DNA of 64,000 bases from Mustelus asterias (lineage: Eukaryota): assembly GCF_964213995.1 (NCBI RefSeq), contig NC_135830.1, positions 16,430,001-16,494,000 on the forward strand. The letters are read 5' to 3'. Both the position numbers and the translations under genes were made by a program. Each line of letters begins with the position of its first letter. Positions within the stretch are counted from its first letter, which is position 1. The notes under the pieces were generated by a model that had not been told where the DNA came from, did no database searches, and saw nothing but the letters and a program-made list of their open reading frames with translations. Below are positions 53,850 through 64,000 of this stretch, one piece after another.

Positions 53850-54151
53850 GCCTATTTGTCACCAGGCACTGTATAAGAATTTTGTGACCCATTCCCCATG
53901 GGAGATATTGTCTGGAGTTGCAGTTCGGGATTATTGTGTACATTAATATTTAAAATAAATATTATTGAAGATATATGGCACGGGAGATACGTTTCAACAT
54001 CTACCGGACAGGTGTTCTTGCTGTTTTGCGCAAAGGAAATAAAACTGTTCTTTTTAATGTTGCCGGGATGCTTCTCTCTGACACCGCCGTGTATCACTGT
54101 GCCACGGAGCCCACACTGCTGCAGAGATAGAGCGGATCCCAGACAATAAGC
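53850..54151 (+). pseudogene. V pseudogene V2 with degenerate RSS
   Basis: ...GMLLSDTAVYHCATE, then CACACTG (54112-54118), a 24-nt spacer and ACAATAAGC; stops and frameshifts upstream. Confidence 0.7.
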
Positions 54152-54965: not shown

Positions 54966-55449
54966 AGTTTTTGTGCAGCAGTCAGACTGCTTTCTATCAC
55001 TGTGAGTTTCAGTGAGAGCGCAGAAATACAAGGCAGCGTCAGTCAGCTGCAGACCCGAGATGGTCAAACTGGTGAATTGAAGTTCTCCAGAGAAACGGCT
55101 TTCAGCAAAATCTGCTACATCTTCACCAAACATCGAGTTCTTCCCCACTGTAACACAGGGTGTTGCCGGTACCAGTATAAATTGTAGTTGCTCATTCTAG
55201 TATCATGGGTACAGTTCAAAGTCACAGTTTTTCCTTCTGTCTGTTATTCTGAGGACAGCGACTGAGTAACAGAATCTCCATGACTCAGATCTGAAAATCA
55301 TGTTCGAACGAAAACAGATCAGACCGACTGAGTCCGTAAAATTCAGTTCAAAAACAAGTTTGTAAAATTAAAGTAAATATGAAATGCGTTTGGTCCATAA
55401 TTCCCTGTCAGGAATGTTCCCGCACAATCCAGAAGCTGAGTAGCAGCAT
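54966..55449 (-). pseudogene. V pseudogene V3 (inverted paralog of V1) with intact 23-RSS
   Basis: Leader ATG at 55449 with donor GT changed to GG; TAA in FR1; frameshift after WYRQHP; LTISGLQLTDAALYFCALTE; CACAGTG (55004-54998), 23-nt spacer, ACAAAAACT. Confidence 0.9.
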
Positions 55450-55963
55450 CGTTGTTGTCTGCTCAGTAAAAGTGGAGTTGGATATTTGAAGACACCCTTT
55501 CCAAACTTCACCCTGTATATTTTGCTGTCGTGTCTCGGAATGCTCTCACTGCATTTCCCTGTATCCGCTGTGGTGCTGTGGGGTTGGTAGCTGGTGAGCT
55601 GTCTGCCAGTGAATGGATTCACCTCGTGCTGGGTTCAGTCAGAGTTCCGATCGGACGAAATAGTTTCCTAGTTAGACACGTGGGAAGAGATTTGTAACCG
55701 GAAACATGGGGTCACTGATGGGGTTTATTTATTCCGGCTTCAATTCTTCATCTCCGATTCCAGTAGAATCGATGTCAGCGAGTGTGGGCGGATAAAACCC
55801 GAGTCTCAGCTTCTTTGATCAGTTCGACAGATAGGCGCCTCAGTTGGACACGAAGCAGGCGTTTTACTCCTTGTAAACTCTTCCGAATATTAAACCCAGG
55901 TCCTGGTTCTCATCTGAACTCCCTGGACAACTGCATCAGCAGAAATTTCATATGATCTGAAAA

Positions 55964-56296
55964 ATGCTCCGAATTCACAGACTCTGTTTGCTGTGTTTCG
56001 CTCTGACCTGCACTGGGGTGACTGGAGCAGATGAGGTGATGCAGCTTCCTCGGCGGAAGGTTGTTAGTGAAGGGGGAACCGTATCCATGAACTGCACCAC
56101 GACCACTACATTTAGCAACGTATATTGGTCCCGACAGTCCCCGCATCAGCCACCCCAGTATCTGGTGATGGCCAGAACAGAAACCGATCAACGCGAGAGG
56201 ATCACTGCCTCAATCGGCGGAGGCAGCAAATTCAGCGCCCTGACTGTGAGAGACGCCAAAGTTACAGACACTGCCACCTATCTCTGCGCCGTGAGC
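55964..56296 (+). CDS. TCR-type V segment V4, intact, leader and V in a single exon
   Basis: Continuous ORF MLRIHRLCLLCFALTCTGVTG-ADEVMQ...SMNC...VYWSRQ...LTVRDAKVTDTATYLCAVS. Confidence 0.9.
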
Positions 56297-56335
56297 CACA
56301 GTGTGACAAACATAGGGTGAGCCCATACAAAAACC
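56297..56335 (+). other. Perfect-consensus 23-RSS of V4
   Basis: CACAGTG, 23-nt spacer, ACAAAAACC. Confidence 0.97.
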
Positions 56336-58364: not shown

Positions 58365-58831
58365 ATGAAGCGAAACCCAAGCAAAGAACTGCTTCCTGTT
58401 GGAGCTCTGTTACTGCTGATATTGTGTGAGTTCATTTTTCTAATCAGATGTGTTGATTCTAATAATCTCTTAATACCGTGCAATTTGTGAGTGATTATTT
58501 TCCTTCATAGCCGTTCAGTGTCAGGGTCCGAGCTCCCACCCCGAGCAGGTTGAGTCTCGGGAAGGGACATGCATTGAACTGATGTGTGAGCTCTCCATTG
58601 GATCTGGCTATTCTGTGGCCTGGTGCAGACAAATGCTGCCGGGGCTGCGATATTTATCGTCTCCATTTACGATGGGAATGTGATCGCAGGACGTTACAAA
58701 ACTGTCCTTTGACCAAGTAAAGAATTCCAGCACCATATTTATCGATGACACGGCTGCCCAGGACTCCGGAATGTATCGCTGTGCGAAGCAGACACAGTGA
58801 GATAGAGAGCGGATCCAGCTGGACAATATTT
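58365..58831 (+). pseudogene. V pseudogene V5 (leader 58365-58425, V exon 58511-58792, 23-RSS)
   Basis: MKRNPSKELLPVGALLLLIL|SVQCQ...LMC...VAWCRQ, then frameshifts, then QDSGMYRCAKQ; CACAGTG, 23-nt spacer, ACAATATTT. Confidence 0.8.
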
Positions 58832-59279: not shown

Positions 59280-59593
59280 CTGTTCCTTGTCGTTCGGAGA
59301 CAGTTCAGATATCGATGTATCGGGTAAAGCAATGAAAAATCATCTTTCTTCATCACAATATTACTGTCACTGCAAGTGACTTTGTATTCTCGTACTGGCA
59401 ATTCACCGATCAAACTACAGAGTATCTTTTATCCACATTCAGAGATGAAACAGCTGTGGGAAGGTTTCAAGTATCTGTGGACCGTGAGAAAGGCTCCACG
59501 ACTCTCCCTGTTAACACGGTTGAGCTGTCAGACGCTGCAGTGTATTACCGGGCAATGAGGCACGGTGAGAGAGAAGGATACTGCACAATAACT
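59280..59593 (+). pseudogene. V pseudogene V6
   Basis: Acceptor at 59279; in-frame TGA; both Cys and the Trp are lost; GRFQVSVD...ELSDAAVYYRAMR; CACGGTG, 17-nt spacer, ACAATAACT. Confidence 0.8.
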
Positions 59594-61998: not shown

Positions 61999-62037
61999 CA
62001 GTTTTGTACAGGTTCAGCCCAGCTGTGAGTCTCTGTG
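61999..62037 (-). other. 23-RSS of V7
   Basis: CACAGAG, 23-nt spacer, ACAAAACTG. Confidence 0.85.
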
Positions 62038-62341
62038 GGTCTCAGTGCGCAGTAATACACCACGGAGTCTGCCAGCTCTGTTTTAGACACCTTCAGTGGG
62101 ACGGTGCGGGCTGTATCATTGAGCTCCGCAGAAAAACGGTACTCTGAAGACCTGTCTGTGTTCCCGGTGTATTTATTTGTCTGCACCAGATACTCCATGG
62201 ACCCGCTGGGATACTGACGGTACCAGAATAGATAAATGTGGTTGCTTGTCGTTGTATAATTACAGAACAACCTAACATCATCTCCTTCAGTGACAGTGAC
62301 TGCAGTCGGTGTCTGTGTAACAGAATCTTCTCGGGAATGTC
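62038..62341 (-). CDS. TCR alpha/delta-type V exon V7, open; leader exon not identified
   Basis: Acceptor TTACAG, then GHSREDSVTQ...LFCNY...LFWYRQ...RFSAEL...ELADSVVYYCALR. Confidence 0.85.
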
Positions 62342-64000
62342 CTGTAAGGGTACAAATAAATATTAACTTACACAATGCGACTTGACTGTTTCGGCCCAGA
62401 ATCTGCCCGCCATGTTGAACAACAAAGTCATAAAGTCACGACAGTGCAGAAGGAGGCCATTCGACTTATCGAGTCTGCACTGACAACAATCTTACGGAGG
62501 CCCTATCCCCGTACCTCCACATATTTACCCTGCTAATCCATCTAACCTACGTATCCCAGGGCACAAAGGGTCTCAAACTCTCAAACTTAGCATGGCCAAT
62601 GCAACTAACCCGCACATCTTTGGAATGGGAGGAAACCAGAGGGAAGAACGTGCAAACTCCACACAGACAGTGACCTAAACCGGGAATCGAACCCAGTTTC
62701 CTGGAGCTGTGAGGAAGCAATGCTAACCACTGTCTCACCGTACCGCCCACAATAATAACCTCAAAGACAAATCAGACAACTGAACAGAAAGATATTTTTC
62801 ACAGTATATTCGCTGGAACGGGAAGGTGCTTGTGGTGATCGAATAAAACTTCCATCATAAACATTCCACACTTACTAACGAGATCAGTTCCTCTGTTACT
62901 GTAACAGGAACTGCTCACTCTCTGTGTTTAAAAGTCTGGCGTTTGCAAAGACATTCACTGGCACCAGAGGAGTTTGAATCTCAGCCTAACTATTCCTCTC
63001 TCATTCCCTGGGGTAAATGTGCCAACTCCCAACAAACAGTGTTCTGTTTTGAGACCAGCGAGATCCGAATGACTTTTCGAAATTGGGATCAATCCATTTC
63101 CCCGATCACCCACCCCTCGCCCGTTGCATTGACCCCATTGAGCTCAACAGAATATAATGTGTGGTAAAGATGTGAAACACAGAATTGAGTAACTTGTGAA
63201 CCTACGGCTTAAAAGAGCTGACGCTGTGAGGAATAAGTACAGCGTAACAGGAGACATGTTTGACGGGAGCTCGGACGGATTTGACCAGAGCTGGTTGAAG
63301 CTGAAATTGTTTGCGGCAAGAAATGGGTAGAAGTTGAGTCACATCCTGGCTCCTGCTGATTGGTTCATTGCCAACAACGTCATCACGTGGCATCCAATCG
63401 ACTCAAGCTCCTGTTTTCCTGAATTCAACCAATAATTTCACAGCTCCTTTACCTCCAGTTAGTTCTATTGGTGGAGGGACGAAAGGGACAAAGTGAATTT
63501 CTTTATCGCACGACAGGGAATTTGACAGGAATTGAAAGGATTTTTGGCTGTTTAACCCTTCCAATCACTCGGGTGAAGATAACGGAAGGAAACAGCGTTT
63601 GATTTTTCAGTACCTGTGCCTGAGGTCTCAATTAAATTAGCTTCTCTCTAACGATGAAAAATCTCCACAGCCGTAAGCTGCAGCCCGGGAGTCATGAGGG
63701 ATTGGAATAGAACAATGTGTTAAATAGATAAACGCCACATTGTAAATGAAATAAATGATTGAAGGGAGTTCATTGTGTGTTTGATGCATATGCGCAGAAT
63801 GGGCATGTGTGTTCAACGCACGGGCTCAGTGATGTTGGAGTGAGATGTTATTTAGAAATATTTATAGGTTTCTTCCTTTAAAAATAACTATGTTTACAAT
63901 AACTTAATATTAACTAACAGAGCCACAGGCTTCCACTGAAAATTGTTGTTTGCATTTAAACCTATTTGATTCAATACACTGGTCAAACCTTCTTTCACAG

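Follow-up and report, generated by a model that had tools for sequence, protein, structure and literature searches.

In passages of PMC12227049, a split leader is called canonical and 'found in all AgR genes', and TCR alpha/delta-type V exons are placed between the IgH clusters of the elasmobranch antigen-receptor complex. Single-exon leaders are known from the chicken, in which, according to passages of PMC10972964, 45 of 48 TRAV1 genes and most TRGV1 genes have them. The original prediction about the shark DNA that is the subject of this report had named chicken V-alpha-1 as a precedent, and correctly so. The shark element lies at 55964-56335 of the window (the whole stretch of DNA that was analysed, 64 kb long; C71:16,430,001-16,494,000), and it is a TCR alpha/delta V segment with a single-exon leader.

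Leader and V domain form a single open frame on the forward strand (55964-56296, with the ATG at 55964) that is followed directly, on its 3' side, by a consensus 23-RSS (56297-56335; CACAGTG-23-ACAAAAACC): heptamer CACAGTG at 56297-56303, a 23-nt spacer, and nonamer ACAAAAACC at 56327-56335. This is the only perfect 23-RSS of the window; none of 100 shuffles yielded one. The leader of 22 uninterrupted codons (55964-56029) is a predicted signal peptide, with a basic n-region and a hydrophobic core and, judged by eye, likely cleavage after Ala22. The V region (56030-56296) is a Pfam V-set domain (E 2e-11) in which the first Cys, the conserved Trp and the second Cys are all present, with 86 amino acids to the second Cys and a short CDR2/C'' region. 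TCR alpha chains make up most of its top PDB matches, the Atlas clusters that it matches carry TRAV names, indicating affinity to TRAV rather than Ig V, and in the tree described below it falls together with a Callorhinchus record named as a TCR alpha chain. The position that matches the intron of split relatives is 56015|56016. There is no AG acceptor at that position in the 55964 copy, and the phase-1 AGs nearby are not preceded by a pyrimidine tract (3-5 pyrimidines of 13); the phase-1 leader intron of a canonical split-leader V gene is absent. The central claim of the original prediction, one ORF for leader and V ending in a consensus 23-RSS, thus stands. The 75 nt ahead of the ATG (55889-55963) resemble the pre-ATG region of an intron-bearing sister family and are covered colinearly by a contig of putative RNA origin from a related organism.

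The 55964 gene is one member of a large family, a point that the original prediction missed. Among the best 150 of 1389 candidate genome matches, at least 66 read from leader through V in one frame (a match from query residue <=4 to >=109), 59 of them without a stop by hand count, and at least 15 of these one-frame matches lie on C71. Of the intronless clade, 41 distinct genes were compared, which fall into subfamilies A, B, C and D; 34 are intact, and all but one of those (33/34) have a near-consensus 23-RSS. The distance from the ATG to the virtual splice site is 52 nt in 39 of the 41 genes and 58 nt in two. The 58-nt leader of subfamily D was considered as the ancestral form and dropped: D groups with 52-nt members, and its extra codons are explicable by an upstream ATG. 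Subfamily A has an upstream ORF of two codons (55952-55960 in the 55964 gene) in frame with the main ATG; ORFs of this type are open in L018/L019/L024, and one may have been the origin of the longer D leader. A search with the junction pattern, which misses a 12-copy tandem array, hit 93 sites (3 with the control), and 68 of the 93 are on C71 or on small V-bearing contigs; the other 25, outside V-bearing contigs and probably due to chance, were set aside. Since the small contigs are possibly alternative haplotypes, copy counts should not be taken as haploid numbers. Five regions, chosen for holding family members and so giving proportions that are no estimate for the genome, contain 44 V rows: 18 intronless, 17 split (two doubtfully, with introns of 999 and 1097 nt), 4 unclear and 5 broken. 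All 18 intronless rows belong to the 55964 clade. The tandem array has 12 intronless V genes at ~2.5 kb spacing (C71:19,363,814-19,397,248; L045-L049), seven of them with a CACACTG heptamer; it lies downstream of TRAC and inverted, so that joining to J-alpha would be by inversion. One orphon, L079 (C14:97,891,534-97,891,698, reverse strand), lies outside the receptor complex on a large chromosome; only the 3' half of this intronless-clade V is left, in decayed form.

The neighbours of the 55964 gene in the window are V segments of other anatomy. V1 (51505-51998, forward strand) is an intact split V of another family, with exon 1 at 51505-51550, a 100-nt phase-1 intron (51551-51650) and its 23-RSS at 51960-51998. 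V5 (61999-63257, reverse strand) is also split (exon 1 at 63257-63206), with an 864-nt intron containing a repeat, a CACAGAG heptamer and a weakened nonamer. The third neighbour, V3 (54966-55449, reverse strand), had likewise been predicted to have a phase-1 leader intron; it is a V1-type pseudogene of split anatomy, in which the leader contains a stop, the donor is GG and the V is broken, its RSS kept. Three more broken V relics with decayed RSSs lie at window positions 53,850-54,150, 58,500-58,800 and 59,280-59,570, and the V island is immediately preceded by about ten C2H2 zinc-finger ORFs (238-39,213); genes of this type are also found beside the J-alpha cluster. The island is duplicated on C107 (window 32,875-64,000 and beyond) at 97-99.8% identity and, from ~49.9 kb, at C71:7.33-7.36 Mb at 91-98%, there beside an IgH-type terminal constant exon.

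On a larger scale, C1-set exons are numerous on C71 and on many small contigs. The J cluster at C71 18.370-18.414 Mb, of 34 motifs (a scan found 12-RSSs for 31 of the 34) is followed on the same strand, at 18.419 Mb, by a TRAC-like exon that we take to be TRAC from its features; it came from a motif scan, and a search with Pfam DUF1968 found no TRAC. As assembled, this J-alpha cluster and TRAC are on the contig and strand of the 55964 V segment, ~1.88 Mb downstream of it. The layout of C71 fits the elasmobranch antigen-receptor complex. Another J-alpha cluster lies at C546:179,911-240,500, accompanied by a TRAC-like exon that differs from the C71 copy (18.37-18.42 Mb) at many residues; this would be either a second locus or a divergent haplotype.

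Transcripts bear directly on the question of leader splicing. The runs X1-X4 (which are RNA by an automated guess and are probably two samples of a single study, each filed twice) are from a related organism, organism A; among runs recorded as RNA, none has a close match to the 55964 sequence itself. The depth of X1 is about 20-160 over window positions 55884-56323 and 0-4 outside. The virtual splice site is bridged by uninterrupted contigs of X1 and X2, one contig of X2 is colinear with the window from 55885 to the ATG, and an X1 contig leaves the window at 56296 to enter an in-frame J (...KLVFGSG). Around the intronless gene of locus L080, similarly, a contig runs from ahead of the ATG through V without any joint in the leader, and the same locus provides the controls: the 188-nt intron of a sister gene is skipped in X1 and X4, and all four runs skip a GT-AG intron of 532 nt in another V. 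In organism A the family is transcribed without a leader splice and rearranges to J-alpha. A separate upstream leader exon spliced into the ORF, which would have told against the original prediction, does not appear in the X1/X2 contigs, in which the leader runs on into V. The proposed look for V-J-C reads produced one in-frame V-J contig of the family from organism A and none closely matching the 55964 copy; since the contigs are those of another organism, they document use of the family rather than of that copy.

The closest relatives within the genome (~40% identity) form a sister family of which all 12 genes are split, with a 58-nt exon 1, a phase-1 intron of 171-189 nt and an L-part2 of 14 nt. 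In split sisters (L062-L065; C546, C1126), the 3' end of the intron can be read in frame, from a Met into a hydrophobic stretch; it may be an alternative leader and is an annotation trap: model P0171 and several Callorhinchus models start in this way. Single-sequence protein searches gave no matches, and an alignment-based search gave relatives. IQ-TREE analysis of V domains (about 90 columns) places the intronless genes in one clade with support of 98/96 in a first tree, from which three anchors were missing, and 100/100 in a second, which lacked one anchor and from which four rows (T_P0131 and three near-duplicates) had been dropped. The clade is nested with the split elasmobranch sisters (99/100); Callorhinchus relatives lie outside, and the tetrapod TRAVs that were sampled, with no row identified as chicken, fall elsewhere. 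Two Chiloscyllium punctatum models and one IMG protein, proteins only, fall inside the clade and have the same leader layout. Intron status in Chiloscyllium and Callorhinchus is read from protein models: the full V-J-C TCR alpha chain of Callorhinchus, AFK11483.1, has 19 leader codons ahead of the site; model P0189 continues from such a leader through G-E-C, which is the translation of a GTGAGT donor, into ~28 residues of apparent intron, so that Callorhinchus relatives apparently have a split leader. With the intronless clade nested in split elasmobranch genes and Callorhinchus outside, the split state was likely ancestral, and the leader intron was likely lost once, in an ancestral elasmobranch. 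The phylogeny that the original prediction had called for places the intronless shark genes among split sisters.

Our reading, to which we give a probability of about 80%, is that the element is a shark TCR alpha/delta V segment with leader and V in one exon, one of dozens in a clade that expanded after what was likely a single loss of the leader intron in an ancestral elasmobranch. The original prediction had offered an ancient intronless V-alpha lineage as one possibility; a lineage of that kind, common to sharks and birds, would accommodate the single-exon leaders of chicken TRAV1 (in passages of PMC10972964), and no row of the tree is identified as chicken, but a position inside split elasmobranch genes, with an apparently split Callorhinchus outside and the sampled tetrapod TRAVs elsewhere, makes it the least probable of the alternatives that we have weighed. 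On the tree, the intronless state appears old only within elasmobranchs, and vertebrate-wide antiquity finds no support. Scarcely more credible is the notion that the family consists of retroposed, non-functional processed copies, or that the 55964 copy is a dead orphon. The copy does lie 1.9 Mb from J-alpha, among relics beside zinc-finger genes, and its two closest duplicates are broken, L002 by a stop and L003 by change of the second Cys to Tyr. It shares with both the motif WSRQ, in which a Ser codon (56129-56131) replaces the family's Tyr after the conserved Trp, as in only these three of the 41 family genes; at 56130 all covering X1/X2 contigs of organism A have A for C, that is, Tyr. 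Of the features for which the sequence had been called divergent, only WSRQ is rare: YLC and a short CDR2 region are common to the whole intronless clade and its relatives, and ATYLC occurs also in mammalian TRAV matches. Against a processed family stand the 33 of 41 genes that are intact with an RSS, the location of the copies among other TCR V genes, the excess of dS over dN over V in 20 of 21 pairs and, already contradicting the family version, the in-frame transcripts joined to J. A processed V would be expected pre-joined as V(D)J and lacking an RSS, and the 55964 segment is neither. The 55964 copy is intact, but the V island around it was duplicated recently, and the copy may be drifting under relaxed selection.

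How the intron disappeared is a separate matter. In subfamily A, to which the 55964 gene belongs (6 of its 23 genes against 6 of the 12 sisters, in pairs that are not independent), the 75 nt ahead of the ATG match the sister pre-ATG region with a mean z of 2.24 (z>3 in 10/36 pairs), compared with -0.76 against the sister intron at the matching distance (0/36) and 0.51 against other families (1/42). That tells against exonisation, in which a new signal peptide would have arisen from the pyrimidine-rich intron 3' end after loss of the old leader exon, as does the leader itself, which over 52 nt is nearer to exon 1 (identity 0.42-0.45) than to the intron end (0.35), and the missing AG in the 55964 copy. 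Exonisation draws on the Met-started hydrophobic frame at the intron end of several split sisters, on the last 15-30 nt, which the intron end and exon 1 match about equally well (0.43 vs 0.33; 0.44 vs 0.46), and on subfamilies B and D, which align no better to the spliced sister and in global alignments have scores as high or slightly higher with the intron side. No pre-ATG similarity to the sister was seen in B, C or D, and local alignment of 400 nt upstream with sister genes gave no signal (z<=0.7). We regard exonisation as improbable, and the pre-ATG and leader comparisons favour, weakly to moderately, removal of the intron in place. Clean intron loss is usually explained by cDNA-mediated conversion. 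Deletion at the DNA level by end joining, with the frame kept by chance, possibly two leader codons lost and no cDNA involved, is the most serious competitor, unlikely as it is in our estimate; it concerns the route only, and is compatible with the rest of our reading. It would account for a leader 6 nt shorter than that of split relatives (52 vs 58 nt to the site) in 39 of 41 genes and for the lack of any visible trace of a cDNA step, but the 14-nt L-part2 is kept exactly, together with the frame, and identity of the leader to exon 1 is lowest when the 6-nt gap is put at the junction (0.32-0.34, compared with 0.42-0.45 for a gap in the N-terminal half), a difference that is not significant against codon shuffles, 58 of 300 of which did as well.

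Precise loss through a spliced germ-line transcript, as originally suggested, is possible: frame and L-part2 are preserved, but the leader lacks two codons and the alignment test falls short of significance. Clean loss and a cDNA route are plausible, and we give conversion in the germ line by a reverse-transcribed spliced transcript, the likeliest route, about even odds. Such a cDNA would have replaced leader, intron and V in place, leaving promoter and RSS, and the clade would have expanded after this single loss. It had been argued that retention of the RSS implies an unrearranged template; that does not follow, since conversion that stopped within the V exon would also leave the RSS, although an unrearranged template is likely, given a germ-line event. 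More tentative is the scenario as a whole, in which the germ-line transcript of an unrearranged V, once spliced, was copied into cDNA there and converted the locus from which it came, giving rise, independently in sharks, to a large rearranging clade. By established V(D)J biology, deletional joining by RAG would link the 23-RSS of the 55964 segment to a 12-RSS J-alpha ~1.9 Mb downstream, and the J-to-C junction would be the first point at which the mRNA has to be spliced.

The intronless TRAV clade of sharks is real: it is likely derived, and it is expanded and rearranging, and larger than first noted. Germ-line RAG joining occurs in sharks, and the germ-line cDNA route, if true, would be a parallel to it, a fossil of germ-line transcription of a TCR locus. 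No core mechanism is altered. Split sisters in the same locus offer a natural comparison for effects of the intron on expression, repertoire use and shark TCR alpha hypermutation. Dozens of shark V segments would escape any annotation that demands a splice acceptor; the chicken needed the same handling. In passages of PMC12227049 the split leader counts as a hallmark of V genes, yet a transcribed, rearranging shark clade does without its intron, which is in that sense dispensable. Convergence with chicken TRAV1, if true, would allow the purpose of the near-universal leader intron to be tested.

Our literature search, which was not exhaustive for key papers and supplements, found no report of intronless V genes in sharks, and hence no prior description that would undo the original prediction. 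Passages of PMC12227049 do not mention them, nor do passages of PMC5931798 (in which the word 'intron' does not occur), PMC5278385, PMC12529555 and PMC2193156. The elasmobranch TCR alpha/delta V genes in passages of PMC12227049 share with the 55964 clade their scatter among IgH clusters, the 23-RSS and linked TRAJ and TRAC, and differ from it in having the split leader. The marsupial (opossum) TCR mu element TRMVj is also a V without a leader intron, for which retro-processing has been proposed; as described in passages of PMC2275272, it is germline-joined V-D-J and does not rearrange, whereas the shark segment is unjoined and has a perfect RSS. Callorhinchus milii short-CDR2 TRAVs (AFK11483.1 and UniRef models) are of the same V lineage (~40% identity, HLV/RITA motifs, ATYLC) and, from protein models, apparently have a split leader with a 19-codon exon 1, in contrast to the unsplit shark clade. 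The closest counterparts in anatomy are chicken TRAV1 and TRGV1, with leader and V in one exon and the RSS retained, and TRAV1 has likewise expanded. In passages of PMC10972964, TRAV1 has mostly weak RSSs, in contrast to the near-consensus RSSs of the shark clade, TRAV1 and TRAV3 together supply <10% of splenic alpha chains, and TRGV1 leaders have poor signal-peptide scores. The QVQQ motif of chicken TRAV1 is absent from the 55964 V, and nesting among split shark genes speaks against common descent with TRAV1; the shark loss is likely independent of that in chicken TRAV1, and the two lineages would then have converged on a V gene in a single exon.
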